From assembly GCF_002105155.1 (NCBI RefSeq), contig NW_019028999.1:372001-436000 (forward strand): DNA of 64,000 nucleotides, written 5' to 3'. Below, piece by piece: positions 5,801-27,956 of the stretch (its first letter is position 1; every line of letters begins with the position of its first letter). The DNA is from Lobosporangium transversale (taxonomy: Eukaryota). The translations under genes and the position numbers were made by a program. The notes under the pieces are model-generated. The model did not search any database and had not been told where the DNA came from. It saw nothing but the letters and a program-made list of their open reading frames with translations.

Positions 5801-6003
5801 AAGAGAAAGTGATATTGGCACGGCAGATGGGAGACCCACGCGTGTTTGCCAATGTTACAGTTCCTTTAGGTAACGTTGCCGGTACAGGAACGTTATTTAA
5901 AAATGAAACGATAGTGCGTCAGCAACAGGACCTTGGACAAGTAGCGAAACACCCAAGCCGTGACCAGCAGGACTTACAAGTTGTTATCCAGCCACTTCCA
6001 TAA
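2826..6003 (+). CDS. SMARCC: SWI/SNF-RSC core subunit SMARCC/SWI3/RSC8 (N-terminal chromo-like module, SWIRM, ZZ zinc finger, SANT, C-terminal coiled coil)
   Basis: Exons 2826-3339, 3431-4506 and 4603-6003 are in frame. [14 protein letters not shown]...[21 protein letters not shown]...[30 protein letters not shown]. Coiled coil: [16 protein letters not shown]. Confidence 0.95.
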
Positions 6004-6157
6004 TTTTAGATTATTCAAAAATGCGATGCTTGTCGGATGGTATCGGAGTTCAAGGAATTCCTTTTTTGGTCAAATGCGTTCTCGAATATCGCGAAAGGGA
6101 CAATTACTTCATCTGATCACAGTTCGGATGGGCGCATTGTATCACTATATCTTTTAC

Positions 6158-6198
<41 letters not shown>

Positions 6199-8133
6199 CA
6201 ATATATTCTTTTTTTTTTTTTTGAAAAATTGATGAACGCAAAAGGTAATACCAAGGAAATCAATTATTTGGCATGTTTGGAGCGTGAGAGCCGCATCGAC
6301 TCACCTAACTCGAGGTTCGAAACCGATGGTTTATGTACGCCTGTTTCTGTCCTGGCTCTTTTTCTTGTTTTTTGCATTGGTCGTACAAATTTGACAGGTG
6401 ACAAAATGGAAGGGCACAGACCCCAATTGGAAAATATTCTAAACGAACACACAATATCGATACACCATTCGCATCATCTTAGTCTGGTCTAGTCTATTGG
6501 TCTGGTCTGCGAATGGGAAAAAAAAAAAGTGGAGTTGCATATTAAATATTATGCAGCGTCCGGCATATTCAAGCATCTACCGTTTGTATGTACCCGCTTG
6601 TGGTGTTGTTACTCCTTTCATCACAAAAGAGAAGCTAACGAAGGGGGATTTCATGACATATGCCAGTGGAAAAATGTGAGAAAAAAAACATATCACAATT
6701 ATGTTTTGCTGCCCTTCGGTTTGGTGCACGACACCAAAAGGGATGTGTTTGAAGACACCCTTTGCGTTGCTTGTGGCCTCCTTTTCTTGCCTGCCTCTTC
6801 CAATTGCCCGGTTTACGATTGCTCTTTCCATCTCTCTTTCTCCTTCATTCCTTCTCTCCTATCCTATCTCCATTCCTCAACATCAGTGATACAGACATTA
6901 AGAAAGTGTGTGCCAAGAGCTTAAATTAACCGGTCGCTCGTATAAATGCAATACCATTCATTGGATTGTGGAAAAAAGAAATATCCTGCCTTGATGTTTT
7001 GATTACTGTTTTCAAATAGCAGCCTTTTTTTATTTCATTTTCTTGAACACTTTGAAGGGTTATTCTTATAGGCTTGCCATCCATGTCTCAAACATATCTG
7101 ACTGTTTAGTGTTAAAAGAAAAGGTTATCTGAATAAGGGGTGTGTGATGGACAAGCCAAGCAATTCATTTTGCTTTTGGCGAAATACAATTTCTACCCCA
7201 CATTTTTGGCAAGTTTTTTTTTTCTCATGTACACACCACACGCGACAACCGAAACATACGACCAAGCAATGCATAAAAAGGCGTCGCCTGGGACACTCTC
7301 ATCTTTCTTTTTTATTCTTCACCTTTTTTCTTCTCTTTTGATAATCTTTAATCCACTCCTCGCCTCTCCTTAGCCCCATCCCCATCTGCACTATTTGCAC
7401 TCTCTTTTCATACTGTCCTACAGTCGTCCGCAAGAAAACTCCTTGATTCCTTGACAGCTTTGTATTCGGCTCTTCAAGTTGGTCTTAACATTTGAGATAC
7501 CCAAGATACTCAAGATACTCGTTTAGGATTGCTTGTCGTCTCCCTTAGTGTTGGTCTTAATCTATCCATCCTACGACAGCTTTTTTTTTTTTTTTTTTTT
7601 TCTCCTTCCTCGAAAAAGTGGCCGCGTTGTTGCCTTTATTGACCCTCCATCTACCTCCATCATCTTTCCAAAGTTTCAAAAATGCTCTGCCAGTGAGTTT
7701 GGAGTTTGTTACAGAATCTCTCCATAAACACAACCAAGTCCTCCCACTAGCTTCTGAACATTCTCCAAACGTAGTCAATTCAAATATTTCACTCTACCTT
7801 TTCTCCGAGTGATTGATACCCTTTCGCCCATTTGTTCTACCTTACCACTTTTACCAAATTTTGAACAAAGCGACAGCCCACAAAAGGCCTCCTCATCCCC
7901 CTTTTTATCGTTTTTTTGGATCTCTATCGGTTTCGTCAGTTTTATTTCGTATTTTTCCTGTTGTGAAATCAAACGAAACATCGCCGACGAATTTGGCTCT
8001 AGCCGATACCAGGTAAAAATGGGTTCGTTCATATTTGTGTAGTGTCACGAGGAACATTCGCCCAAAGAGGCAAGCCTTGCTCGATCCTGCATTAAACTCA
8101 GACGTAATTTTTTTGCATGAAAAAAAACTTAGT

Positions 8134-9650
8134 ATGACTTTGATGCAGTCACAAGAGGCAAGTGCTACAAAACGTGCACTTGCTTTGCCCGAAATCGTCT
8201 TCGAGATTCTTGCTTGTCTTGAAGCTCAAGCTGACCTTTGCCCACAGCTGGTCCAATCCACATTGCGTGCCTGTACCTTGGTCAACTGGACATGGTTCTT
8301 TGATGCGAATGTCTTTCTTTATCGTGCTCCTTACATTCGTCATGGCCGAGGATCCGAGGCAAAGATAAATGCATTTGTCCGCACTCTAAGCACCACCAAT
8401 CGTGGTATCTATGTGCGCTCGCTTTCTCGCTGCAAAGTCGAGCTCTGGGACATTTACCCTTCGCTCGATAGGCTGTTTGAATATTGCCCACGTCTTTCCT
8501 CCCTTGCTCTGTGCTTTCGTTCAGGCGAGCAAGGCCATTTGATGGAGCCATTCGAAGCTGAAGCTTTCCGTTCGTTTAACCCGACCATTGCAAAGGGTAT
8601 GTCACATATCCATGAACTTGACCTGACTAGTGTGTCCATCAATTCGACCGATAAGGATGACGCTGCCTATGCAGATGCTGCTTTGAACTGCATCAGCGCA
8701 TGCACCCGCCTCCAGAAGCTAGTCACCACACGCGCTGACTGGACAAATATTAGAACGATCTCGCGACACCTTACAGACCTTAGTATTTCGTTTGTGGCGC
8801 CACCAGACCTCAAGACAAGCGTTATGCTGGCTCCTAACTTGGTCCAACTGACTAGCCTTCATTTGCATCATGCCTTGCACGCCCAGCCCGCTTATGATTT
8901 TACACGGGTTCTGGCCCAGTACTGCTGCTCTTTGATCAACCTCGATATCTGTCCTGAGGTCATCACAACCACCTCCCTTGAGAAGTTGGTCGAACGCAAC
9001 CCAAGGCTTACGTCAATTTACCTTCGCAACTGTCCAGACGAATATACATCGGCAGTTTTGGAGCATCCACCTCAGAATCTTAAATTTTTTGACATGGGTG
9101 TTGTTGACTCGCAGTTAATCCTCAAGGCTCTAGCCCTATGCCCCAAGCTGACATCTACTGGCAAGTCGGCACCCAGAAACAATAACACTGCTGAGTTCTG
9201 GCAGAGCTTTTTGGAACGTGCTCGTCAGATCCAGGAATTGCATGTGGAGCGCTGGACCGACTTCCACAGCAAGGATTTGTTTTTCAATACTGTCCTTCCA
9301 AAGCTCGGACCACAGTTGGTCCGACTCTGGTTTGGCTGGAGAGATCTTTTGGGATGCGACGAGTTGGAACGTGTGCTCACTTCTTGTGACCGTCTTCAAG
9401 TCCTTCGAGCACCTGTGAAGGGCAATGGCCAGGTAAACAGGATGAGCTGAAACCAAGATCTTGATTGTGATCGCGCAATTATCTAATCACTTTTATTTTC
9501 TTATAGAACTTGGTTCGATGCTTTAAGGTCGTCGCTGATCGATCTCGACTACGCGAGGTGCGTCTCTTTGGAGACAACGTCAAGTTCTGCGATGACGACA
9601 AACGACGAATGCAACGTTTCCTTCCGGTACTTTGCAGCTTCACCAACTGA
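8134..9650 (+). CDS. F-box-like / RNI-like leucine-rich repeat protein
   Basis: ALALPEIVFEIL...LRACTLVNWTW F-box-like motif followed by LRR-like repeats (CPRLSSLAL, NPRLTSIYL). Exons 8134-9432 and 9507-9650. Confidence 0.8.
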
Positions 9651-9880
9651 GTCACTGCATTTCTAGGATATAGCCAATGTGGCATACCTTATCAGCACTT
9701 GACTTTGTGTAATCATTCATTTTATCCATCTGTACATATAACCTCAAAAAAAAAAAAGAAAAAAGATATTTGTACTTTTTCAGTGCCATAGCTTGCTTGT
9801 AAATATTTGTGTAATAAATCATTATGAACTGTCTTCAATGCCATTCTATTGTACGAATATAATCGAATCTAGACTACACT

Positions 9881-11132
9881 TCAAGCGACAGCAAAGCGTT
9901 GGGCAGCACGGTCGAACAGACTTGACTTTAGGTCTAGATCTTGTAGGTAGCTGTGATTAGGTGCTACGCTCTGTAATTGTCTATTTCAAAGCATAAAAAT
10001 AAAAAATAAGCTTATCTAGCCATTGAACTGTATAGTACACATTGAAATTAAATTTTGTGGAACTTACTGGACAAGGCTGTTAATTTCCTCAATGGGCTTG
10101 TTCAGCAGGGTTGAGAGGACGATTTGGTTCACAATTGCATCTGTGTTGGTGGGTTCCTTAGCCAATGCCTCCTGTAAGATCCCTTCAGCCTCTGGATATT
10201 GACCCATTTGAATGTTACAGACCGCTTCACCAACCAATGACTTGACTGTTGGCGATGTGCTTGAAGTAGCGATTTCTTCATAGATATAATATGCATTCTG
10301 GTAACGCTCTCCTCCTCCAACACGAAGCCCGACCCATGCCTCCATCAACTGAGCCAACATAGCATCCTCAGCCCAGGACTTGCAAGCCTCAACTTCCTTT
10401 TTAGCTAGATCCAGACGATTCATCTGGAGATAAATCTGAACAACGACTGCCACGCTAAAAATAATAAGGCATTAGTTTTTTTTTTCTCTTTACTTTTTTT
10501 TTTATTTTTTTATCATATTTATATATTATATAAACTTGATGTTGAACATCACATACCTCTCTAGATGGTTGTTATGCGGCAAGAGAACAGTCAATGCTTC
10601 CTCAACCAGACCCTCGGCACCCAAGACCTGACCTACCACTACTTTAACTTCCAATGCCGTAACTTCTGGCTGTGAATCCTCTGGTGAGTGGATAAGGAGA
10701 AGTTCTCTGAGGTGTGACAGTGCAGCATCACGCCCCGTAGCATCTGCAGACTGCACAGCGTCTAAATATACAGCTTGAGCTTTCAAAGCCTGAAGACCCA
10801 ATGCATGAGACTCAGTGATCTCCTGAGCAACACGGTTATAATCTTTGATGGCGATAAGTGAACGATAGAGGAAAAGGTCCAGTTGATGAATGGTGACTTG
10901 ATTAGCTGAAGCACGCGTCCTTGATGAGGTGGTGTCGGCAATAACCTGGTTATAGTTTCCTAGAATGAAGAAAAAGAGTTCGCAAATGGTGTATTAGGAT
11001 GGAATAACTGGACTAGAAAAAAAAAAAAAAAAGTAACGCGTAGGATGAGCGCATGGTTGTGTTCTTAATGATCCTACAAAGCATACCAGAGTAGAAAAGA
11101 TTGCGAATGGCAAAGAGTGTATTTTCGTCCAT
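9881..11132 (-). CDS. COPE: Coatomer epsilon subunit (TPR protein)
   Basis: Starts MDENTLFAIRNLFYSG|NYNQVI. Contains VQIYLQMNRLDLAKKE, WAEDAMLAQLMEAWVGL and YQNAYYIYEE, and ends KSSLFDRAAQRFAVA*. Four exons with canonical sites. Confidence 0.92.
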
Positions 11133-11282
11133 GATGTACAAAGTGATGCGTGAATCTGAAGGAATGAAGTGATGTGGAAGTAGAGAGCAAAGATGGAACA
11201 GATGTCAGTCTCTGTCCCACTTTCATGCGTTGACACGTTTCAGAAATATAAGGTGGCTTTTATTACATTCGAAACGGTATCT

Positions 11283-13248
11283 TCATGATATGAGATTGGA
11301 AGCTCTTGGGCCAGCTCTCCTCGCCCAATGCTTAATGGTATGATCATTATCACCATCCTCAAAGGCCGCTTTGATAACATTCAACATCTCCAAGACTGGT
11401 TCGAGTTGCTCCTCGTCTCCCCAACCATATTGACGTAGCTGTTCCTTGGATGTGATCTGGCCTGGGGACGAAGAATTCAAAGAACGAGTTTTAAGCTCCT
11501 TTCGGATACTCCGAACAAGACTGAGCGTGTCACCGTCAACTAAAGCTCCACTACGTTGCATCTGCTTCAAAATCTCAAGACATCCTGCTCCATCATTCCA
11601 CGCATCCCAGCGGGACTTAAGAAGAGCTTTGTATGATTCTGTGCGGACTGTGCGAATAAATACAGGAAGGCCTTGTCTACGGGTATGTTCTACAAGAGCG
11701 CTGCCTAAGAATGGATGCAATGATCTCTGGCCTTCGCTATCTGCCAAGCGTGTGGAAGAGGCCGTTAAAATAGCTCGTGAGAGAAGACTATCCAAGCTAA
11801 CGCTCGAGGGCCTTACAACCTCTGATGATTTTTCTGATGAAGACTCTAAAAATGGCAAGATAAGCTCGTCCACGAATTCCTGAACTTTGATAATATCCCC
11901 ACTTTTATCGTCCAGCTCCTTTTTCATCCTAATTGCAACTTTGTTCTCTTCACGAATGGCATTGAAGATGGTGTTTTCTTGAGCTGAAGTCTGATCTCGA
12001 CTCAGCCAGTCATGGGGACCAACGGTGTTTTGCATAACCTGAAAACTGGATGTGCTTGGCTTTACGTCCAAGTAAATCGGCTCCACTCTCTTCGAAAGAT
12101 TTTCAAATTGACGCTGAAGCACTAACATTGGGTCATTCTTTGCTTTTGTATTCGATACAGTTGAATCTGGCGCCGTTGGAGGATGGCCTGCTGTGCTGTC
12201 GCTAGGGACCGCTGAAGATGTTGATTCACTACCTTGTTGACTATCTGCAATCCCTTCATGACCTGTACGATTGAAGTTGGAGAAGAGTGACTGTACCTTT
12301 CCTCCAACGCTAATTTCTGGTTTCTGTGGCTTCTTTTGTTCAAAGAGCGATGAGAATAACGCCTTGAAGGCGTCCCTTTCTGAGCTTTTCATCTTTGGAT
12401 CCTTCCAGCGATCGGAGAGCGTATGGCGGCTGTCAAAGGTTAAGGCTGACGATGGCTTCGCTGATGAAGCTGCACTTGATGGCGATCGATATTCTGAAAG
12501 TGCAGGGAATAAGGTTGAGGCTCCTGGGATCTTATCCAAAACCTCCTCTCTATCTCCATTACTATCGCCTTCCTTGGCTTTCCTTTCACCCAAGTCATCC
12601 TCATCAAATAAAAATTTCCAAGACTTAGAAATTGAAGCCTTAGTTATTTCAGTTGCGCCAGGATCTGCTTCCGTAGTCAACGGTGTCGTCCTTGCCGGTG
12701 TTGTCATCCTGAAATCTTCACCCATCTGAAGCTTCTCGAACAGTCGATTGATCCTTTCAGTACCTGTGCGTATTTCAGCTTCTCTTGATTTCCTCGCAGC
12801 CTCTTCCTCTGCTTGTTTCCTTTCCCTCTCCAGCTTTCTCGCGCGGATTCCCACCTCAGCAGATGGCTTTAATTTGAACTTCTTGACTAGATCTTCAGTA
12901 GTAATCGGCAAAGGTGTGCTATTATTGGTTGGTGAGGATATATCTCGCTGGTTCTCCAACGTATCGTTGTTCTCTTGATTTTGTGCTTTCATAGCCTTGA
13001 GTGAACTTCCCTCAGTTTCCTGCTTTCCTGCGCCCATGTATGTTGGACTCAATGTGGAGAAAGCAGGAGCCTGGCGTTGAAGACATTGGTGTACTCCTGA
13101 AAGTAAGGATGTTAATAAAACAGAAAGTAAATATCAAAACCAAAGATTGTAATGATATCGAATTTTAGAAGTTAATACTTCCATCCAGTGGTTTACCTTG
13201 TTGTAATGAGATCCTGTAAATCATGCAATGCGTTGAGATCCCTTTCAT
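11283..13248 (-). CDS. Probable mitochondrial Mtf2/Nam1-family protein
   Basis: Short exon 1 (MKGISTHCMIYRISLQQ, targeting-peptide-like) splices in frame to the 589-codon ORF. The C-terminal YKALLKSRWDAWND...LEILKQMQRSGALVDGDT resembles the Mtf2 C-terminal domain. Confidence 0.6.
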
Positions 13249-14940
13249 TGCTTTTTAAAAGTTACAATTATTGTAGTTGGCTAAGATTGCAGGTTTTGTT
13301 TACTGTGGTTTGCATTTATTGGGTGGCTGTTATCTCCACATGGCAAAGTCGGAGTCGGGCTGTGTGATCTGCACACGTGTTGCAAGACACAAAATATATA
13401 CAAGCATAGTTTGTAGTTCCAGCAGCTCTGCCACTTGACACAAGTCTTTATTCATTACCAATGTTTTATGTATTCAACTGTATAACAACAACTATTATAT
13501 TTTATTATTACTGTAATTTCTTACTTTATGACTTTTGCTCCATGTTAATCAGTCGTCTATTCAAGGACAGCACAGCTCGGTCAAGGAAGATCTGCGTTTA
13601 GCCATATGCCTCTGGATAGGTATGGCGAATCTACGGTGTATTGCTTGCTAGCGAAAAGCCCAAAGCCCTGCAGACCCGACGATATTGTTGATTAGCAATA
13701 TTCAAAGATAGTACGCAGACAACCACCACCACCAGTTCCTCCGCCATAGGAGAATTTGATCCTTCGCGTAGGAAAAGTTTGAATGAAGAACTCATGGAAA
13801 AGACAAACGTGTCAGACGTTAGAATGTTATCTTGAAATGACAGAGGACATGCGCAAAGCAATAAGCGATACATGGCTATGGTATCGAGGCCATATTCGGT
13901 TTTTGCGAAGACCGAGAGAACATATGTAAACTGCTGATAATCTTGTGTTTATACCTCGCATATGCCAGAGCTTTATTATTCTTTGGACACAGCCATTGGA
14001 ATATCTGACAGTTGGTTACCATGAGCATTACATTAGCACTAAGTTTCCACGCAATAACAGTAACTCATCTCTTCAGGATACAAACTAGTCTCACTGCTAT
14101 TACACCCACTAGACATATTTCGATTGCGACATCCCTGTACCAGAAACATAGTCCAGGTATGTTTGGCTCAGATCAGTAGAGACGGCTAAGTTCAAATCTT
14201 TAACAGGCTCATAGGGCGCGAAAAAAAAACCCCTTGAAAGGTTGTAAGTTGATTGTATTACCAGTCCTAGTATTGATACTTTCGACGGATCATTGAGAAC
14301 TGAATTATTTATCTGGAAGGCGACTCTATCCTCGGTTTTTTGAGAAGTTGCATCAACTCCCATAACCATGTGCGCAAATTCATGCAGGCAGAAGCAGGAG
14401 AGTGGCTCCGTGTATTTCAACGAAACGGATACTACGAAAAGCTTTCCTCCCCCCTGCATCATTGCTAACCTCTCTTTTGGGCGCAGACCCATCTGATCAA
14501 AAAAGCTCTTGGTCACTCCTTTTTAACTATTTCCGAATTTGTTGCTCAATGCTCTCCCAAGTCATCAACTCGTTCTCCTTTTTTTTTTTTTTTTTTTTAC
14601 TCGCTTCTTTCTATTACTACAACCAAGTGTTCGTCTTCGATGTCTTCACCTTTTCCTTTTTCATTGCCTTTCCATCATCTTTATTGCTTTCATCTTGTTG
14701 GTATCTGAAAGAAAAAGAAGTAAGCGACTTTGTGCAGAACCAGCTCTTTCCTTCTACGATATTAAAAAACTATCCAGCCAAACTTATCTTCTGGTCGACC
14801 CTCCAACCCCTCATTCGATTTTACTGTTGATCTTATTCTTAGTACTTGATATTTTGACCTAGAACTGTCTTACAACCATTATATTTTCTATTTTTCAAAG
14901 GCAATACTCGCACACAACTGCTTAATAAAATCCAAGGGAT

Positions 14941-17900
14941 ATGACATTGGCTATATCAAATTCTGTTTGGGTCGAGATTACTGACCCCGAGTCTCGCAAT
15001 ACATTCTATGCAAATCTGGTAAATGATCAAGTTGAATCGAATAATGATGAATGCGATGCAACATTGTGTTATGTAACTTGTCCGGTCACTTGGAATAACA
15101 AGTCATCATTGACTGACCAACTAATATTTCTAAACTGATTCCTACTCTCTGGTGACGCTCGTACTATAAATCCTAATACCCATTTACATGTGTCAAAGAC
15201 AAGCGGGGAGTGCGACTGGTCTCTTCCAGAAGGTGCTGTAATGTAAGTAAGATATCCTCCATCGTTCCTCAAAGACCCCTAGGAAGATATTCCAAGCTAT
15301 GAAAAACCAAGTAAGCCGGCGCTCATGTGCCTTTTTCTTTTTTTTAACTTATTTTATTTATATACTTCTAGCCAGCGACAGGACCCCGCAGGCGAATGGT
15401 GGGAGCTCTTTGATGATATTCATAATCTACCTTATTACTACAATACAAAGACAGGCCAAACAGAATGGGAACGTCCGCATGATAGCATTAATGTCATCTC
15501 GTTGACTGCAATTCAGGCAAGCAGCTTTATACACGCTTGTGTTGGATCTACCACCCCTTTTTTAATTACCCCATATGATAATAACAGAAAACAGCTGCCC
15601 AGCCGAAGCCACGACTTATGACTTTTGTGTTGATGGATTTATCTTATTACTGTAGAAATCTATCATCGGACAGCAGCTTTCCCTTCATATCACAGGCGGA
15701 GGTGGACAAGGACCACCGGAAGAAGCAACTAATGCTATCAATGGTGTCGAAGGACACCGAGTATCATCAGTTGTAGGGACCCCAACCATAAATGCATTTC
15801 CAAATATCATGGATTCTGAATCTCAAACTTGTATAGCAGCCAATTCCTTGGGCGTAACCGCTGACAAACCGAAAAACTTCTCGATCATTGCATCATCCCA
15901 GAGCGCAAGAAGCGGCAGTTCGCCAACGCTTTTTCAAAACACACAGACGTTAGAATTGAAGCCAATGCTATCATTATCATCGACGACGGGACCTATTATC
16001 AAAAGTGCTAGTCGAAAAAAATCAAGACCCTATAGCTCACAAGCACAACAGCTGTCTCAAAGCATTTCCACCAATTCAATAATGTCATCGTTCCAAAAAG
16101 CAGCATCCATGACTTTATACAGGAATTCAACGTCATCATATGGGCAGCCAATACCCATTCCGCCTCGTCCGCAGTCTGTTTCGAGCAATGCACCTCCACT
16201 TTCAACATCTCACCCTCTAACATCTACTGAATCCAAGAAATTGAGTGTTTTGGGGATATCCAATGACACACTATTTCAACCAGCACGCAAAAGCCTTCAG
16301 ATTGCAGAGCGTGCCAGAAAAATTGGTATCGGAGCACCAGTGGCAAACGATGAGGCAGCAAGGAAGATGTCACCTATGATCATTGAGCAACAGCAAGAGG
16401 CCCTCCGTAAAATGTCAGGTAGTCCTCCGCCGACTTCCTCTGAATCAGCGTCAAAAGAGGGTAGTCATGTTGTACAAGCTTATTCACAACCGACTGGAGG
16501 CGGTACCTTCCCTCTTGGTACGCACCCTGCACTCCCTGCAGAGCTTCAGTCATCCATTTCTCAATTTCGTATAGCAGGCTTTGCGGAAAAATATTTCTCA
16601 ACACATAAAAAGGGTCTATTCCGGCGAAAAGTGCCTATGGAGAAGATGTTACTTCATCAGAAAAGTCCACTTAGCCAGCCGTTAATGGTACTCAATAAGC
16701 GTGGAGTTCAGAAGGATGCTCTTAGATGCTTCAAAATCATCCAAAAATTGATGGGCGAGCGAAAAGGGAACGGATATGCAGGGCCCACAGGCGTAGAGTT
16801 AGGCGAGACGTGCGTTGACTTGTCAATCCAATCTGAAGAGGACATCAAGTTAGTACTAGAGCTAATCAAGAAGGGTCAAGATCACGGTGAGCTTCGTGAC
16901 GAAATTTATGTTCAACTATGCAAGCAACTGACACAGAATCCAAGCAGGTTAGTTAAATTCTATCTCACATGTTGACGCTATAACTACTACAGGAATTAGT
17001 ACTCATAAGTGTTTTCCATACTGTTTAATTCTAGAGAGGGAAGCATCAAGGGCTGGCATTTGTTCACAATAATCCTTATAACATTCGCTCCATCCAAGGA
17101 TTTACATACCTACCTGGCTTCATTCCTCAACCAGCATGCAACTGTATCTCTGCATCCCATCCCGGTAATGGCTCGACACTGTCTTGATCTACTTCGCCGG
17201 ATCAGTAAACGGGGCTCACGGGCAAAGCAACTTACTGTAGTCGAAATTGCACGAGCCCAAGAGGCTGCATTCAAGCCAAGCGTGTTTGAGGCGACATTAG
17301 AGCGTCTTATGGGCCGCCAAATGGCAGCAGGAGGTGAATGGGCGGCATGGCGCGTCCCTCGACTGATGGTGTTTCTGAAAGAAAGTGTATTAAATTTGGA
17401 TGGCCTGAAGACAGAAGGCATATTTCGTATCTCTGGCGATTTAGGCGCCGTTGCCGAACTGGTATGTCTATTTACAGATTTTTGTCACGCACGAAACCCA
17501 TTGGTCCGTGCCCTGTATGTCTGCGATTATATTTCGTCGTACACAGTGATTTAGCGTGTTTTTTTTTTTTTTTTTTTTTGTCTGTGTGTGTTTATTTTTC
17601 TTGCAAAACAGAAAGCACGGATAGAGCTCGGAAACTATGATCTATCAGGAATTGCAGATCCACATGTACCCTGTTCATTGCTGCGACTCTGGATCCGTGA
17701 CCTACCAGAACCCATCATCCCTTATGATATGTATCAACGATTCATCGATGCAGCACAAGATAAAGATGCGATTGCCAAGCTGATCGATGATCTTCCACTT
17801 TGGCATAAGGAGACACTCATCTATCTCGTGGCGTTCTTAAAGGTAAATATTAATCGTGTTTTGCCATCCCTGTTAATGCCTCTTATTACTTTACATGTGT

Positions 17901-18159
17901 CTTCTCTAACTTGATTGAGTTGTCACCTATCCCTATCGAAAAAAAGACATTCAATCAACCAAAGATTCGAGAAGCTACCAAGATGAGCCTTTCAAATCTA
18001 GCTATGGTTTTTGCACCAACGCTTTTGCAATTTTCTAGTGATGACATCCCTATTCAGATGGGTCGTTTACAGGCAGAGAGAACGTTTGTTTCAACGCTCA
18101 TCGCAGAGGTAGAGCTCTCAGATGAGGACCTATGTATCGTTGGAGAGTCTAGGAGTTGA
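14941..18159 (+). CDS. ARHGAP39: Rho GTPase-activating protein with two WW domains, MyTH4 and RhoGAP (ARHGAP39/Vilse-like)
   Basis: WVEITDPESRNTFYANL|TSGECDW and WWELFD...YYYNTKTGQTEWERP (WW pair). ELRDEIYVQLCKQLTQNPS (MyTH4). EGIFRISG, LRLWIRDLPEPII and KMSLSNLAMVFAP (RhoGAP). Seven exons. Confidence 0.88.
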
Positions 18160-19029
18160 GTTAGAGTAAAAAATTAGTTCACATAAAGACCTCTGGAGAC
18201 GCAAGAGATGTCTTGCCTATTTATTTGCTTTACCTGTGTTATTGGACCATGGAAAGCTCTATGTTGAACTGTAACCATCCAACAGGGCAGGGATGCATTT
18301 GTTCAAATCTTAGTGTATAGTCTAAATAGATTAGGTTATTGACGTACTGGACCTGGTGAGGTTTTCTCTCTCAGCTGTTCTCATTATAATAGTATCTTGT
18401 AGTCAAAGTCGTCGTTTGGATCCACACACCAGCCAGGTGAGTAGTAATTGATCCTTGAGCACACACACATAGAATCACTCTCGCGCGCAATAGCGTATCA
18501 CGATCTTGGATCAAAAGCATGAGACTTGGATGTTGTAATCCGCCACCTCCCTCCACTTGACAGACAGATAAGCAGTGTGGCTTTGGTAAACAAAATTCAC
18601 ACCTTCCTTCCTTGCAAATGTCGCTTTTTCAAACAGCCTTTGATTTTCTCAACTTGCATTGCCTTCTTTTATGCTCACAAATTCTATCCCTCTCTTTCTT
18701 TCTTGTTACCATCGTTATCGCCAATCTCATCCCCTCATTCTTATTACACTCCCCACTCTTCCCACTTTTCGCCTTCTCCACTCTTTAGTTTTAGTATTCA
18801 CTTTGTTCGTGAACCGAATGTCTTGACATCTAGCTCCCTTCTAAAATTCTCTTCACTCCTTCATTTAAACATTCCTGAGTATTCATTCATTTGCATTTCC
18901 TTCTGTTCATTTGTTTCCTATTACTTATATTGCTTCTGTCTTCTCACTCTTTTTTCTTCTCACTTTTTTTTCTTCTCTTGAGTTTTCCAACATCACTACA
19001 CACTTTGCTGCAATAACACGGGTTACTCA

Positions 19030-20883
19030 ATGTCCACACCACCATTGAGCCCTTCTACTAAAACCTCTTCCGGGCCTGTGTCGCCTTCAGTCTCTCGGCG
19101 GAAGCTGTCGCGAACCCAACATTCCAAACCAAATGAGTCTTGGTTCCTTATTCTTGTTAATGCCTTCAAAAGCAACTTTGAACAGACTCTTACCTACCGA
19201 GAGTCAGAACTTTATGCCTGGATCATGCAGGCCTATCCTTATTACCGTCACGATACTCACACAATGCAAACTAGTGTCAAGACGACCTTGTCTTCATATG
19301 AATGCTTTCGACAGAACGGCAGAAGTACATGGACATTCATTCCGCGGCGAGCCCTTGTCCATTTAGAAAGCCTCAAGTCACAGGAAAACCGCAGAGAGAG
19401 CAATATTTCTGGTGAAGAAGACGAGGAGGAGTTCGAGGATGAAGAACAAGAAATTCCAGATCAAGATCATGGCGAAGGCGATACAGAATCTCATTACAAT
19501 TACCGAAGTCTGTATACTGACCATCCTAACCGGCATGAGGCTCACGAAGATGGACCCAGTACTAGGATACGATATGTCGACAAGCACTTGGACCTGATGG
19601 ATGAGGATTCACCAACTTTATCAATCGAAGAGATCCAGCGTTTTAAGCAAGAACACTCTGGAACTCAATCTCGCAAGTTGAAGCGCAAGGCTTCTGGTGA
19701 ACATGGAAGTCGTCCCAGGACACGATCACCACCTGCGGCCCTTCAGGATGAGTGCAGCATGTCCATGAAGGCATGGTATAATTTGCTAGTCCACATGTTT
19801 GAGGCTTCACCTAAGCAAAAAACCATCCGTGAAATTTTTGCGTGGGTCCATGACAATTATCCAATTTATCGGGACGCTCCGGATAATACATGGCAGAAAG
19901 ATTTGACAGCCGCATTGGAATCAAACCCTTTATTCAAGGCAATGGGCCGAGGAAGGTGGCAAATGGTAACGCAAACAGCACAGCCTATCATAGTGGTTAA
20001 CGAAGGCACAGGAACGCCAGGAAGTGGCTCTGCAACTAATCCACCTTCAAAAGTCGGAGATGATGCCACCGATAGTCCTTCTGTGACAGAGGATGAGGAT
20101 TGGAAGGCCATTGGCTCAAAACGGCTACTCAACTTCTCCTTCCGACGTTATTCAATTGCGACAGATACTGTCCCTAAAAATCAATACAAGATCGGGTCTA
20201 CCGTCCCTGCTAATTCGGATGGTCAAACAGCAACAAACGGCAAAGTAAATGTGGCTATTATAGCGTCTCCTGGATCATCTCTGTCCACCACGGCATCTGG
20301 AGGCAATCTTCTACCCCTTGATCATCGAGCGACGGCATACAACACAACGGGAAGACGATTTTCTTCCTATCATCAACCAACTCCAAAAAACTCCCCTCCT
20401 CTTGCAGCTACTACTACTGGACTTTTACCAATCGAAGAAATAGGCAATCATATTAGAGGTGCATTGTCTCAGTCGGCATCGTATGAAGAAGATTCCGCCA
20501 GGAGATATATGGCACCATTACAGAATGCTATCAATTCTGCTGTCCTTGCACTCCAATCGCAACAACCTGATCAGCACCAGAATACTTTGACCACAGTGAT
20601 ACCAGCTACAGCATCTTCGCACATAGGCAACTTCCAGACAAATCGCGATTTACAGAATACATCACAGATAGGTCGTCATGAGGATCAAGGATCTACCCAG
20701 AAACCAACCACAGCCCTCGTTTCCACAGATGACGCCTCACCCACTGTGTCTTCCTCAAGAACGGTATCAAATCCTGAATCTCAAGTAGAGCCTGAGATCC
20801 TAATACCCAATAGCGAGAACCTTGCTTCTGATCAAATGGATGCCATTCATGCTTTGGCTTTATTGTGCGGAGGCGGTGTTTAG
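19030..20883 (+). CDS. Intronless protein with two divergent forkhead-like winged-helix domains and Stb3-like motifs
   Basis: 617-aa ORF. WH1: ELYAWIMQAYPYY...SVKTTLSSYECF...W. WH2: TIREIFAWVHDNYPIY...WQKDLTAALESNPLFKAMGRGRW. Also TEDEDWKAIG, several RRxS sites and a C-terminal DAIHALALL. Confidence 0.75.
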   Translation: MSTPPLSPSTKTSSGPVSPSVSRRKLSRTQHSKPNESWFLILVNAFKSNFEQTLTYRESELYAWIMQAYPYYRHDTHTMQTSVKTTLSSYECFRQNGRSTWTFIPRRALVHLESLKSQENRRESNISGEEDEEEFEDEEQEIPDQDHGEGDTESHYNYRSLYTDHPNRHEAHEDGPSTRIRYVDKHLDLMDEDSPTLSIEEIQRFKQEHSGTQSRKLKRKASGEHGSRPRTRSPPAALQDECSMSMKAWYNLLVHMFEASPKQKTIREIFAWVHDNYPIYRDAPDNTWQKDLTAALESNPLFKAMGRGRWQMVTQTAQPIIVVNEGTGTPGSGSATNPPSKVGDDATDSPSVTEDEDWKAIGSKRLLNFSFRRYSIATDTVPKNQYKIGSTVPANSDGQTATNGKVNVAIIASPGSSLSTTASGGNLLPLDHRATAYNTTGRRFSSYHQPTPKNSPPLAATTTGLLPIEEIGNHIRGALSQSASYEEDSARRYMAPLQNAINSAVLALQSQQPDQHQNTLTTVIPATASSHIGNFQTNRDLQNTSQIGRHEDQGSTQKPTTALVSTDDASPTVSSSRTVSNPESQVEPEILIPNSENLASDQMDAIHALALLCGGGV

Positions 20884-21569
20884 ACCCCACATGGAATAGA
20901 TTTTAATAAAAGAGTTTAGACTATCCCTTAAACCGTCAACCTGGCAAATTTGCCATTATAAATGGGCTTAAAATCCAGCAATTCATGGGCATTGTCTTGA
21001 AATTTTATTTCGATGTCGAAATAAATGACCGAAAACTGAGTTGATTCATTCTACCGCACCTTAGAGCTTGCTCGGCAAGACTTGATTTGTCACATCATTT
21101 ACTTGCTCGTCTTCTTGCGTTCCCTTGATGTATCTGGGTTGGTAAACACTGCTAGTAGAGTTTGTTGGGCCTGTTGAAACCAGAGGGAGCCACAGCAACA
21201 TATCATACCCAAGGTGATACAAATATCTCTGTTGGAGTGAGTGGTGAACTGTGTGTGGTTCAGATGTAGTGGACATAAACGGCGAAAGAATGCATCGAAA
21301 GGATGTGAGCGGTTATGAGAGCAAGGAAGAAGGGGTTGATATGCCTGTTCAAGTCCTTGGCAAGAGGGCATGAGTAGCAGTTGTGATCACGAGTTGATTT
21401 CGGTGAGTCCGCATAACAATGGTATAGTTTCTAGACCCTATCTTCCACGTACAGCATTGCATTATTGTTGTTTTCAGACCTGGCACCAATCATGCGAGGT
21501 ATTTCTCTTTCTGAGGGTTCCTTGTGTTAAACAGCCAGACAGAAAGCTTAGAAGAGATACAGACACAAC

Positions 21570-24500
21570 GGTGAAAAAAAAATGTATGCGAGCAAACAGT
21601 TGCTGTGTTTATTTGTTGTCTGCACATGCCTTCTTTCATCGCGGGCTTTTTTTTTATTGTTTCGCAAATCTTGTTTCCTTTTTTGTTCGTCAATCACTGT
21701 GTGCACGAATAAGCAGCTGAAGCATCTCTTTGGTTTCTGTACATGTATAAACACATTTTACATCGTGGCGTCTTTTTTTGTTCAAAACACAAGCGTTTTC
21801 CATTGGTGCTTCCAAACAAACTTTATTTTGGCGGCCACTCCACAATCCAGGACAAGGATCAGCTGGCAACAGGCCTTAACTCTGTCTTCGATGTCTGTCT
21901 GTGTGCATATGAAGCGGACCCATGCATAGGGTGCCATAATGAGGAGAATGATAGGATCGTGATGTCCCAAGACTCTGATTTTTTTGCGTACGAATGAGTC
22001 TGCTTCCTAGTGGGACCCCTTCCGCGCCGTAGACGGAAGTTTGGGGTTTACGATGTAGACAACGTTATCCAAGCACTAAGACTGCCATCACACGCGCATC
22101 TGGTGTTATTCTGTGCCATCGCAGGCAATGACTACTCAAGGAACCTCGAGACGTTAGGCCCGGTTAATAATCTTCGATTAATTCGAAACGTTGCGTGGAA
22201 CGAGAACTACAATAAAATGCTTCGGGACTACCTAAGGGAAGCTAGTAAGGTGTTGGGAAGGAACGCAGCCTCTGAAGAAGGCCGTTTCAGAGTAGCTCTC
22301 CGCATTTTTACTTCCGACCATCAAACGTCGGCCCAAGCGCTACCATTGAACAATGAGTTCGATAACTTCAAGCAGCGTCTACTCAATGGAAAGGATCTTC
22401 GTCATAGAATGACTCAGCAAAGGCGAGCGCAGCGTCGCAGAACGTAAGGAAGCTCAAGCTATAGTTTTGGCCTTGAAACCATACGTCCCCAATACTAATC
22501 GTTAGTCCCCTTCTTGGATAATGTAGAGACACACCATCATTCTATATAGCGAAAGGGTCACATAGGAACCAGTTCCGGCCCATCTTTTCTGACAAGGCGA
22601 GCATATTGAATGGGCGCACAGTTGATATCAGTAACTGCCATCAGCACGATAGGCCGGGCCTTAAGCATCCACCACGTCGGAAAAAGGCAAAAAAGAAGCA
22701 ACAGAAAAAACAAAAGCGGAAGCACAAAGGCAAGAAGCCCCACAGGGCTAAAAAAGAAGGTGCACCAATTAGGGACTTGAAGGATGCTACGAAGGTTGAT
22801 CACAGCTACAGCAGTAAGCACCTTATCAAGGCCTTAACAATTGGGTCCCTTAAGGCCTCCATGGCAAGGAAAGGCGGACTGGACGCAGATGAAAGGGATA
22901 GTATTGCAAGCCAGATCCGAGGGGCAGTTGTTGTCCTCAACCGACTACGCCGCTATGCATACTGGGCGATTGCCTTGGACATTGAGAGGATCATGTGGTT
23001 ACCAGGGGCAGCAAAGTCGAGGAAAAAGGCACTGGACGAGGTCTTGGATAGCAATGATTATTCCTTCCGTCTCGCCACCCTTCTTTTGAGTGGTCAAGGT
23101 GGCCCCAATTCAGCTTACGCGAGGGCAAAAAAACAAGGAAAGGCGGTAGAAACGCCCCATCATCACCTCGCTTATGAACATTTCAAGGCCACCACTGAAC
23201 TTTCCCCAATAAAGGATATAGACATCACATTGGGGGACGTCCAAGGCTTTGATCCCAAAAAGATCTCATTTCCAAGAGCGTCAGACTTACTAATGGGCCA
23301 AGTACAGACATCATTAAGGCAGCACTACAGGAACGCAATGGTATAGCTTGTGTAAGGGTATTTTCATGCATATTCTGCAATCAAATGCTCTTTATTCACA
23401 CCTTTTTTTTTTCTTTTTTTTTTTTTTTCTAGTTTGATGTCGAGAAAACAAATGAAGATATGAGCGACATTGAGTTTTTTCTGCGGGAGAACAAAAAAGT
23501 GAAAAAATACTCAGACTTTCCTACGTCCCCCTGGTCACCCGGGTATGTGTATCTGTCTGAACACGCCCTAGTTGACATCCTCTGGGCGAACGAAGATACC
23601 AAGCAGCTGTTGGAGCGTATTCTGCCTCTCAATAATGCTTCCAAGACTGCAATGTATGAGTGTGTACAGGGAACAAAAGGGGTTTTGATACAGGCTCTCT
23701 TTTGTGACATTGGAGGTGATCGCATGGTTCGTGGATATCAAGACAAAGTATCCCTGCAGTCACAGGACAAAGATCTAACTCGGTTCAAACTCAAAGGAAC
23801 GATTTCTACCAACGGTCTAGTTCTGAATCTACTTGCCTATGACACAACCCAGACGAAGAGACAGCAGCAGTCTGACGTAGATGAAGAAGACCCCAGCCAA
23901 GAACTGGAGCTTTCTCAGGGATTTCTCAACACGACGTGTTCAAAGGCGGCCGGTGAAGACCTGACAGATGAAGACTACGCAGACATAAACTGGAAGAGGA
24001 GCTCCAAACTGCTTGAAAACGTTGAGCTCACATTCAACAAACCAGGGCGATGCCCATCCGCAAACACCACAACTATCGTCGGATGTGATCCTGGTATTGT
24101 TAACGCCCTTACGTTTTCCTCCCTGGATCCTCACAACCCTAACTTGCGGCAAACGGTAAAGGTGAGAAGCAGGTTCTTGTACCTCCCCGTCCTCCGCTTC
24201 AATCACCTGTTGAACAAAAGGAAGCGTGAAAAAGGAATGATTGAGGTTGAGAGCGCCATCCCTGTGTTTGGAAGGGATACGTATAATGAGTACTTTCAAT
24301 GGATGAACGAGGAGTCTCAGACACAGACAGGATCAACGAATTTGGATGTGCTTCAAGAGTTCTACGAGTCCAGATGGCACCTGAAAAAAAATGGGACCTA
24401 CGAAAGGCTCAACGAGCTACGTTCGACTACGCGGTACAGCGAGTGTTGAAGATGCTTGGGGATAAAGGAGTACTTGTCGTCGGCCTAGGGTCCTTTGAAA

Positions 24501-24950
24501 GTAGTAAAGGAGTTCCCAGCAAGCACACTGCTATAACGAGACATCTTGTCACACAGGTATGGCTTTTTTTAAAAAAGTAAGCAAAGCTGGAAAGCCATAA
24601 AACCCTTGCTAATAAACGACTGCCATTTGAAACGCTTAGATCAAAGCACGAGGACACTTCGCTGTAGGAGCGCACGAATTTTACACCAGCGCCCGCTGTC
24701 CCCGACCCCTCTGCGATAGCTTTTTAGAGATGCTGTACCCTCGTTCTAAATATTGGAGGACATGTAAGGTATTCTTCGACCGTGACGCAGTAGGGGCGGA
24801 AAACATCGCAAAAATCGGTCTTGCTCAAATTGAGAGGCAAGAGAGACCTGCAAAGTACAGGCTCACGGAAGAGTCGCCTGCTCCGGCTGCAAAGCGCGCA
24901 CGATGCTAGACACAAGTATTTGGGTGCCGGCACACCCACAAAAAATTTGT
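21570..24950 (+). mobile_element. Decayed Fanzor-encoding element; boundaries approximate, left end especially uncertain
   Basis: Carries a TnpB/Fanzor-like nuclease gene with inactivating lesions, followed by a 3' hairpin. It sits between two conserved host genes. No TIR or TSD was identified. Confidence 0.7.
21840..24909 (+). pseudogene. XPG/FEN1-like nuclease fused to a Fanzor (TnpB-like RuvC + Zn finger) nuclease; disrupted
   Basis: Exons about 21840-22443, 22527-23340, 23433-24556 and 24640-24909. FEN1-like motifs: EAD (21911), SQDSD (D at 21971/21977), GNDY (22124). RuvC motifs: IVGCDPG (D 24087), HEFYTSARC (E 24676), DRDAVGAENI (D 24784). Lesions: TGA at 21995 and a frameshift in A8 at 24384-24391. 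Confidence 0.85.
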
Positions 24951-24970
24951 AAGTTCTGTTTATTTTCGTC
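24870..24970 (+). ncRNA. Candidate Fanzor omega-RNA scaffold / element right end
   Basis: Hairpin TGGGTG-CCGGCA-CACCCA (24921-24938) closed by ACAAGT/ATTTGT (24912-17/24945-50), immediately after the Fanzor stop. The position matches known omega-RNAs, but there is no expression evidence. Confidence 0.4.
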
Positions 24971-25741
24971 TCCTGTATCCTCTCTAATCTTTTGCCCCTG
25001 AATTTCTGGACTAACTTTAAAAACCGTACAGATCAACAGATAACTTTGACTTCGCCGAATTACGTAATTGGAGACGTAAGGGCTCTCGAACGATGTTACA
25101 GACGCTACAATCAGCCATCTGTGTCTGATAAGTTAAGTTTGCCACAGGGCAAATTTACTGTCAATAAATTGATCAAAAAGCTTTAGCCATATTCATTTAG
25201 TTTCCCTGCTTGATGAACAGCATCCAAGGGATACAAACTACTCATACAAGACCCATTTGAACTTGGTTTAGGAAAAAGGTCTATTTCCATCAATAAACAT
25301 TAAATCCTATACCTTGTTTACGCTTAGTCCACGTGATCATATACTGATTTTCAAAGAGAAACTTACACATCTCATCAGTTCATTGCGAGAAAATATATTT
25401 CTCATCTTTTTTTGTTGCAGCACCACGGCTCATTTACAGAATTCGCGACTGAGATTGGAGCACACAAACATTGATCTTACATTTATTTCATCCTTTGAAC
25501 GATCACACACCTCTCCTCCCTGTCATTACCACTTGTTTTGAGTTACGCAATATACAAATCACTTAAATCAAGGCATTCCTGACACTGTGGGACCACAAGC
25601 ACAGATTTACACGTTTTACGCTCGTTTTATAGCTCTCTGCAGCGCGCGTCATTTGGGGACGCCTGCTCAGAGTATCAGAGACGTCTTTAATTTCCTATCA
25701 CAGATACATTTGCACGGAAACACATAGACTTGTTTAGCAAA

Positions 25742-27956
25742 ATGAACCCAACACAGCCACAGCCACAACCTGCTATCACCCCTGAGATGGTTGCCAATCT
25801 GTCACAGGAACACATCACTAGCGTGTTGAATGTAAGTGTGTGTTGTTCATAAAGAAACAACAAAGTGCCTTTCGTTACGATGATTGCCAACAGTGTCTCA
25901 TTCTTGTAGTTTTATACTTACAATATACAATACCCTTTTGTACGATATGTCAACGTATAGGCTGTAAGGAATATGAAAGCCGCTGGCGCAACAGAACAGA
26001 CCAACCAGCAATATGCCCAGCTGATGTCCTTGCTGCGTGCTTATCAGGCTGCCCAGGCTCAAAACCAGCAGCGTGCCCAGGCTGCCCAGGGTCTTACGCC
26101 ATATCAACAACAGCAGCAGCTCCTTCAAATGCAACAACAGCAGCAGTTCCAGCAGCTTCAGCAAGCTCAACAACAACAGCTTCACCAACTACAACAACAA
26201 CAACAAGTAGGCGCTTCTGTCCTACCTCCTACTCAGGGCTCGCCATTCTCTCAGGACCAATTGGTAGATTTACGCCATCAGATCATTGCCTTCAAGCTCA
26301 TCTCTGCTAATATGGCTGTCCCCCCAAATTTGCAGGAGGCCATCTTCACTCCCAAATCAGTTGAACAGGTCTTGAGCGCCAAGGAACCTACGGCTTCGGT
26401 GGCTGGAAGAGTTGTTGATGTCGCTCGTCATCATTTGTCAGAACAAACTCCAACCGCATCAGACTATAACGCATATACATCACCTTTTTCATACCTTCAG
26501 AAGACTTTACCCTCGGCAGTACATGCGTCGCGTCAGCAGCGCTTGTTGATCCCTAGTATCTCGCCAGTTGGTATTGATCCATACGCATTGGCTCAGGAGC
26601 GCGATAATCGTCTGAAGAACCGTGTTAAATATCGTATTGAAGAGCTAGATGGTCTTCCTAGCAATATCGCCAGTGAGGCTCTTGACCCCTCTGGAGGTCT
26701 TCTGGGCCAAGAAAACAAGGCGCCACCATCTGGACCCAAGCTTAGGGCCTTGATTGAGCTCAAGGCGCTAAGGCTTCTGGAGAGGCAAAAGAAGGTATAT
26801 GCTTTGTTATCCTGTCATTATCTTTTACATTTTGGGGAAATTGATTGACTGATCGATATATATATATGCATCACTATCTGCAATACTAGCTTCGTGCGGA
26901 AATTATTAAGGGAATGTCAAAGGCAACTATGCTCGCAACATCTACTGATCGAGCCGCTTATCGTAGAATGAAGAAACAATCCTTACGTGAGGCCCGAATG
27001 ACCGAGAAACTTGAGAGGCAACAGAGACAGGATCGCGAGGGACGCGAGAAGCAGAAGCATCTAGACTACCTTCAAAATATTGTAAATCACGGACGTGATA
27101 TGATTCAATGGCATAGGACACAACAGATGAAACAGAACAAGTTGGGACGTCTCGTTCTTCAATTCCACGCTCATGTGGAGAAGGAGGAAGCCAAACGTAT
27201 TGAACGTATCTCTAAGGAGCGTCTAAAGGCTTTGAAGAACGATGATGAGGAGGCATACATGAAGCTTATTGACCAGGCCAAGGATACTCGTATCACACAT
27301 TTGTTGCAGCAGACCGATTCTTATCTCGCTTCACTCGCTGAAGCTGTGACAGCTCAGCAGAACGACTCTATTCATACAGATGCAACCACTCGTGGTGGCG
27401 TCGAGCTTATGGATGACGAATCGAACTTTGATTACGGTGAAGTACCAGTAAGTCCCATGTTTATTTTAAGACGTCTAAAAACGATTCCCTTCCCTTTTTA
27501 CAGTATTATATACCGGTTAAATTAGGCTGACCATCTATCAATGTCCGTACATTCATTTAGGACGAGAGCAGGCGTAATGACTATTACAATATCGCCCATA
27601 AGATCCAAGAAAGGATTGTTAAGCAACCATCGATTTTGACTGGAGGAACACTAAAAGAATACCAGATGAAGGGTTTGCAGTGGATGGCATCACTTTATAA
27701 CAACCGTTTGAACGGCATTCTGGCAGATGAGATGGGACTGGGTAAAACCATTCAGACTATCTCTTTGGTTACATTCTTAATCGAAGCTAAACAACAAAAT
27801 GGTCCATTTTTGATTCTCGTTCCTCTCTCGTAAGTGAGATGTCGTGGGATTATTTATTTGGATGCATATATTTGAGACATGCTGTTATGGAAGTCTGTAT
27901 GGCCTGACCTAATATTGATTTCTCTCTCTTTCTCTCTTTCTGTCTCTTTCTCTCTC

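Follow-up and report, generated by a model that had tools for sequence, protein, structure and literature searches.

The locus considered here raises the question of whether two nucleases whose motifs lie side by side in fungal DNA belong to one protein and, if so, what such a protein could do for the DNA that encodes it. The window, that is the whole stretch of 64,000 nucleotides of Lobosporangium transversale DNA that was analysed, had been described in an initial annotation as holding a single spliced gene in which an XPG/FEN1-like nuclease is fused to a Fanzor/TnpB-like RNA-guided nuclease. At this locus lies a dead copy of a multi-copy fungal mobile element of Mortierellaceae type; the one gene of the element combines an EXO1/FEN1-type nuclease with a Fanzor1, and the two-nuclease fusion is real, resides in one gene and is family-wide.

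Gene structure and lesions of the window copy

21848..22443, + strand: remnant of exon 1, with the XPG-I half, the H3TH and the EAD, DSD and ND motifs; premature TGA at 21995-21997
22444..22526, + strand: intron 1, in the nuclease-to-Fanzor linker; 83 nt, phase 2, spliced in run X7
22527..23340, + strand: exon 2, with the linker, a basic patch and the start of the Fanzor WED/REC; 54% identity to the relative P0001
23341..23432, + strand: intron 2; 92 nt, phase 0, GT..AG; a phase-0 intron lies at the same position in locus L002
23433..24556, + strand: exon 3, with REC/WED, RuvC-I (24075-24095) and RuvC-II (24479-24496); Gly at the canonical Glu place
24557..24639, + strand: intron 3; 83 nt, phase 0; an X7 contig skips 83 bases
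24640..24909, + strand: exon 4, with the alternative catalytic Glu, the zinc finger, RuvC-III and the stop; Pfam Cas12f1-like_TNB match (E 6.7e-5) below cut-off
24949..25031, + strand: intron 4, in the 3' UTR and inside the candidate scaffold; 83 nt, GTAAGT..CTAAC..TACAG

The first three introns had been proposed at these same coordinates and stand as described, all being GT..AG with phases 2, 0 and 0, so that the frames join once spliced; the motifs named for both nuclease parts are likewise all present in the window. The extent first given, 21840..24909, is to be widened: the whole feature reaches from about 20924 to 25040 and includes the fourth intron, which had not been recognised. Splicing was followed in run X7, which is read as RNA by its behaviour only, because the intron of a neighbouring gene (25831-25961) is spliced and the intergenic bins 25125-25486 are without cover; the other runs are DNA. 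The expected splicing of introns 1 and 3 is found there. In one X7 contig 22443 is joined to 22532 with 5 letters between, which is the exact removal of intron 1 in a copy with two substitutions, and the skip of intron 3 occurs in no DNA run, a second X7 contig covering part of this intron unspliced. Intron 4 is also spliced, since 24948 is joined to the letters of 25032 onward and then to the flank of another copy. Intron 2, which lies in a masked poly-T repeat, is not seen spliced, and an X7 contig ends at its donor (23340). Intron 1 has the same phase and lies within two codons of the same position in L002, and is missing from the metagenome locus L001. Its retention is followed by an immediate in-frame stop both in the window (22444-22447) and in L002 (1481-1484), and the product could be a free-standing nuclease of about 345 aa.

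Two lesions had been recognised in the read-through, and both are present: the in-frame TGA at 21995-21997 and a frameshift in the A run 24384-24391, which is one A short; the extra A (position 24383) is carried by most of the other copies (139.9 of 168.1 depth in X2). A third and larger lesion had escaped notice, namely the loss of the start codon and of about 143 N-terminal codons corresponding to the XPG-N half. Nothing homologous to the ~143 residues with which intact relatives begin was found upstream of the exon 1 remnant, a search for a hidden exon was empty, and loose contig ends in X2 and X4 show extra DNA of other copies at 21846/21847, so that the window copy has suffered a deletion of its start codon and XPG-N half. 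The pre-junction letters of this extra DNA are in frame and encode, by hand translation of a low-agreement consensus, a peptide that resembles P0001 over the corresponding stretch; the letters that follow the left arm in other copies open with ATG, again in a low-agreement consensus. The length of about 930 aa originally given to the protein must be revised, as the intact protein of the element would measure about 1,080 aa. The codon of the third zinc-finger Cys, at 24756, encodes Trp in the window copy and Cys in the other copies.

The exon 1 remnant shares 42% identity with residues 144-330 of P0001 (E 8e-41). The basic patch of exon 2 (22681-22737) resembles a nuclear localization signal by appearance, and the model of an intact relative aligns to SpuFz1 from residue 444. 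Synonymous to non-synonymous counts of 11:14 and 12:22 were also considered as a sign of selection and discarded as evidence, as they come from 59 hand-picked variant rows of several hundred.

Folds and class of the two nuclease parts

Profiles were needed for the assignment of both parts, because Pfam gave only weak matches on the six gene pieces of the window (XPG_I_2, E 0.081; TNB, E 6.7e-5) and the relative P0002, searched as a single sequence, found nothing relevant in the PDB. A profile of 139 sequences matched FEN1 (5e-13), Rad2/XPG, EXO1 (1e-6) and SpuFz1 (2.5e-9) in the PDB. The structure of the intact relative P0004 was predicted with AlphaFold2 (pLDDT 86.8, pTM 0.70); an earlier model from 6 sequences (pLDDT 47) had no structural match at E<=0.001 and was not relied on. 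The top Foldseek ranks of the P0004 model are SpuFz1, FEN1, PpFz1 and EXO1. In VIA-align, residues 2-315 of the model superpose on human EXO1 with Z 22.5, rmsd 3.1 and 282 aligned residues (FEN1, Z 21.3), and residues 444-1120 on SpuFz1 with Z 17.8, rmsd 3.4 and 467 aligned residues within 18-633 of SpuFz1 (PpFz1, Z 17.7). Both folds are thus shown by the predicted model of an intact relative, and the FEN1/EXO1 and TnpB/Fanzor assignments of the initial annotation are borne out by profile and structure matches.

The N-domain positions follow FEN1 numbering, the aligned FEN1 letters being those of the profile match. The hallmarks given for FEN-like (Rad2/XPG) nucleases in the text of PMC5499597, that is six acidic residues of the PIN core, a helical arch and an H2TH/H3TH, are found in intact relatives; the window copy is without the N-terminal half. 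For the C-terminal part, the Fanzor1 motif D-X(125-275)-[TS]-[TS]-X-X-C4 zinc finger-X(5-50)-RD, as described in PMC3627910, is found in P0004 (D883, TS-A-K-C1063, four cysteines, RD1093), and the read-through of the window has the same motif with the private Trp in place of the third Cys. According to the text of PMC10530073, the canonical RuvC-II Glu of Fanzor1 is replaced and an alternative Glu lies about 45 residues downstream. Here the RuvC-II Glu place holds G, A or S in 23 of 25 aligned rows and never E; the alternative Glu occurs in 16 of the 25 (the rest being 8 gaps and 1 Ala), 35 residues downstream in P0004. The Fanzor1 architecture with enlarged REC is also present, in agreement with the 467 residues that align to SpuFz1, and the family belongs in the Fz1 branch, to judge by the relatives entered as FZ1 in the Saito table.

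Distribution and conservation of the fusion

The profile search returned 1,455 proteins at E<=0.001. Both parts are present in 21 of the 22 homologues of at least 900 aa among the matches listed (154 proteins were collected, the profile matches being the best 150 of the 1,455), which agrees with the initial placement of the two domains in one gene. Full-length relatives were found in Mortierella, and 16 of 20 looked-up relatives belong to Mortierella, Linnemannia, Benniella, Entomortierella, Dissophora, Actinomortierella or Modicella, the remaining 4 coming from taxon-less metagenomes; in viral and prokaryotic contigs a pattern search of low sensitivity found no relative. In L001 one intron-free open frame of about 690 codons opens with the start codon, crosses the junction and continues into the Fanzor part. 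The three outcomes named beforehand as counting against the fusion (no fold match, domains always separate, intron 1 never spliced) did not come about.

Conservation was evaluated on an alignment of 25 rows with a median identity of 22%, comprising 24 hand-picked long relatives, some of them near-duplicates, and the window read-through. The N-terminal acidic and arch positions are kept as D 19, D 21, K 21, R 21, E 23, D 24, D 24, D 25 and D 24 of the 25 rows, the misses being nearly all gaps from truncated gene models. In the RuvC triad the first D is found in all 25 rows, the alternative E in 16 and the final D in 17. Judged from this alignment, both active sites are under selection, the catalytic residues persisting at a median identity of about 22%. 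In addition, of the 7 clades starred in the N-domain tree, 6 are found again in the tree of the Fanzor part (22 rows each), the clade P0012 + P0160 being the one that differs; such largely congruent trees fit a single ancient fusion that was passed on as one unit.

The mobile element and its ends

~20924..25040, + strand: multi-copy mobile element; the window copy is internally deleted and intact copies would be about 0.4 kb longer
20922..20923, + strand: TA at the left end, likely target-site duplication, which would end the target-adjacent motif; placed where unique contigs end
20924..21847, + strand: left arm, apparently non-coding (promoter/5' UTR), ending at the deletion junction 21846/21847
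25041..25042, + strand: TA at the right end, divergence point of other copies

The copies of the element were observed through the contigs of sequencing runs rather than through a whole genome. The depth of X2 rises from 8.7 on the flanks to 108-780 across the element and that of X1 from 122-130 to about 4,000-20,000, with the same step in X4; the step and the divergent flanks, found in 3 DNA runs from 3 studies, make this a multi-copy element, which is one of the features of Fanzor1 membership. An 857-nt contig with a depth of 162.7 against 8.7 implies, as an estimate, about 19 near-identical copies in the X2 strain. Single-copy contigs end at 20947-20949 and resume at 25017; the left end is placed within a few bases and the right end comes from loose contig ends. 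The last position shared with other copies is 25042 (4 contigs of X2, 3 of X4, 1 of X7) or 25043 (3 and 3), at least one copy is without TA after the end and one diverges at 25038. The probable TA duplication is deduced from one left junction, and most other copies keep the TA at the right end; no empty allele was seen.

In the left arm none of 6 ORFs has a Pfam match, the collected proteins give no tblastn match, and the arm as a whole folds no better than shuffles. A perfect 10-bp hairpin lies at 21003-21024, about 80 bases inside the left end. Neither the repeat search nor local alignment found terminal inverted repeats longer than 2 bases (only TC..GA), such as belong to Tc1/mariner elements. 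No transposase was found in the element DNA and no Tc1 transposase in the window, and the loose ends of the deleted stretch read as the missing nuclease codons.

Some further observations concern the surroundings of the element. The 10-mer GACTAACTTT is common to the rebuilt empty site (20918-20923 + 25043-25047) and to the branch region of intron 4 (about 25006-25017); two X7 copies also continue TA-ACT, and the sharing of GACTAACTTT may reflect target preference or chance. Two relics of the same family are present in the window: the decayed C-terminus of a divergent member at 13978-14330 (E 6e-5), which like the main copy has a GTAAGT donor (14244) about 30 bases past the stop, a hexamer found 7 times on the window + strand, and a decayed RuvC region at 46974-47269 (best E 7e-8). 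No similarity to the element ends was found at either relic. The element is flanked by a forkhead-domain gene (18982-20883) and by a gene for a QLQ-domain SNF2-like remodeller (from about 25744), both X7-covered. In L001 the fusion gene is preceded, 0.65 kb upstream, by an apparently broken Tc1/mariner element (163-1791) with HTH and DDE_3 domains and inverted repeats of its own.

Right end and candidate guide RNA

24896..25042, + strand: right-end segment, candidate guide-RNA scaffold, apparently kept in many gene-less derivatives
25043..25062, + strand: host flank that would supply the guide of this copy

In X2 the summed depth of the right-end segment is about 780-1,600, against 130-300 in most of the nearby coding bins; such over-representation is expected if gene-less derivatives keep the last 147 bases, and it suggests that they do. 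Transcripts of X7 cross the right end into different flanks. The candidate guide is placed by the Fanzor1 rule, in which the scaffold includes the duplication and the guide comes after it (as described in PMC10711439). The candidate scaffold, spliced or unspliced, folds no better than shuffles (z -1.6 to +1.0) and matched no Rfam family. Intron 4 lies inside the most conserved right-end segment, and with this intron removed the candidate scaffold would measure about 64 bases instead of about 147.

Proposed role and alternative explanations

The proposal starts from what is observed, that is the fusion, the conserved catalytic residues, the multi-copy element with TA ends and the transcription and splicing of its right end, together with both predicted folds; to these it adds a guide RNA, a target, a DNA substrate for the N-domain, a coupling of the two activities and a transposase in trans, which we infer. 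In intact copies a guide RNA from the right end of the element and its flank would direct the Fanzor part, which would cut the element-free version of the site; the tethered EXO1-type nuclease would then trim the 5' ends or strands after the cut, so that the break would be mended from the element-bearing copy by recombination and not by end joining, movement to new sites being left to a transposase supplied in trans. We hold a guided cut of the empty site with tethered 5' trimming, favouring recombinational copy-back, to be the probable role, by a modest measure. As described in 10.1101/2023.03.14.532601, TnpB cleaves donor joints left empty and increases the retention of the element, and SpuFz1, in the text of PMC10432273, leaves 5' overhangs and cuts 16-21 bases from the TAM. 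In a eukaryote 5' trimming would be advantageous because end joining would scar the target and stop the copying. An engineered EXO1-based editor reportedly raises HDR and lowers NHEJ.

FEN-fold enzymes act on RNA as well, and the substrate of the N-domain may therefore be DNA or RNA. As these enzymes also remove RNA primers, the N-terminal nuclease could trim the transcript from its 5' side to free the guide, or remove the guide from the R-loop for enzyme release; a spliced, read-through transcript carries the candidate guide at its 3' end and must somehow let it go, and a weak XRN_N match (E 0.011) occurs in one member. This is unlikely, since the family has preserved the arch K/R pair and the H3TH typical of 5' nucleases of duplex DNA, structural comparison of the N-domain points first to EXO1 and FEN1, and other Fanzor1 proteins, as described in PMC10432273 and PMC10711439, make guides without such a domain. 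A different possibility is that no transposase is involved and the two nucleases mobilise the element themselves, the guided cut together with flap processing initiating copy-in at new sites: the window copy has neither transposase nor terminal inverted repeat, yet many near-identical copies are implied in X2, and several relatives lie on contigs of only 4.0-5.5 kb. We regard it as improbable. The ends are sharp at TA, as left by DDE transposases, the Fanzor cut falls 16-21 bases from the TAM, away from the junction, and the Tc1 element upstream of the L001 gene has its own repeats; moreover, Spu-1 is likewise without internal transposase in the text of PMC10432273, and the absence noted here is that for the DNA of the window alone. 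Just as improbable is a self-contained RNA-guided element with one cutting and resecting protein that spreads without transposase or terminal inverted repeats and whose guide would be made or switched by the splicing of the scaffold intron.

Long deletions would be expected where a processive 5' exonuclease acts at a guided break, and exonuclease fusions are said to enlarge Cas12a deletions, so that the protein might destroy the DNA to which it is guided, be it that of rival elements, of viruses or of competing nuclei, and not serve repair. No spacer array or defence context was seen, however, and guides drawn from each insertion's own flank would make the host's empty alleles the targets; this role, too, is held to be improbable. 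That the fusion is an artefact of gene prediction or an inert captured passenger might be supposed from the fact that most relatives are automatic gene models, that many short matches hold one part only and that intron 1 retention would release the nuclease alone; it is largely refuted, and very improbable indeed, given the continuous frame of L001, the RNA splice at the junction, the residues kept at 22% identity and the congruent trees. The short matches, for their part, often end where intron 1 begins, P0049 ending like exon 1 of L002.

Comparison with known systems

SpuFz1 of Spizellomyces punctatus, encoded by Spu-1, and PpFz1 of Parasitella parasitica have the same WED-REC-RuvC-zinc-finger body with the rearranged RuvC glutamate. 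In contrast to them, the fusion family adds in front a domain of about 330 residues with the EXO1/FEN1 fold and a basic linker, and reaches about 1,080-1,500 aa. Spu-1 is likewise multi-copy and without its own transposase, with gene-less derivatives that keep the right end (as described in PMC10432273); it differs in its 30-nt inverted repeats, none of which were found here, and in the spliceosomal intron that lies here inside the candidate guide region.

Human EXO1 and FEN1 share the fold of residues 2-315 of the relative, and the acidic set, the arch Lys/Arg and the H3TH Asp align with human FEN1; the identity is however 13-17%, and the domain here, rather than depending on recruitment by host factors, is supplied by a mobile element in one piece with an RNA-guided nuclease. 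The homing of IS200/IS605 TnpB, described in 10.1101/2023.03.14.532601, resembles the proposed role in that the empty site is cut so that recombination restores the element. It differs in that the fungal element has no TnpA, resides in a eukaryotic host with competing end joining and brings its own candidate end-processing enzyme. In IStrons, which combine a group I intron with TnpB, splicing and guide-RNA sequence reportedly overlap at the right end. The likeness is confined to this overlap, as here a short spliceosomal intron of the 3' UTR is involved and the element itself is not an intron.

The family in the literature and its meaning

No paper joining Fanzor with XPG or Fanzor with Mortierella was found among those searched, and the combination of Fanzor with flap endonuclease gave reviews or unrelated work. 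A word search of the main texts of PMC10711439, PMC10530073, PMC10432273, PMC3627910 and PMC13565253 returned no mention of an extra nuclease domain, as did the available portions of PMC11423790 and 10.64898/2026.06.03.729735. 'XPG' is absent from the searchable supplements of three Fanzor papers. Three of six tested accessions are FZ1 rows in the Saito table, where a fourth (P0149) is also present, and three of the six occur in the Yoon table. In a sample of 37 rows of the Saito table, all Mortierellaceae and all FZ1, nuclease motifs are visible by eye in 18 of the 19 proteins of at least 1,000 aa, and these motif-bearing proteins are nearly all described there as hypothetical. The family is therefore already catalogued as Fanzor1, and its extra nuclease domain is apparently unremarked in print.

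An EXO1-like end-processing domain kept with a guided nuclease across several genera is a pointer to the purpose of the breaks made by Fanzor. The two-domain family is also a clean system, in which one domain can be mutated at a time and the repair outcome read, and the fusion is a natural counterpart of the engineered nuclease-exonuclease fusions meant to favour precise repair. The spliced right end, in turn, raises a new question on the making of eukaryotic guide RNA.
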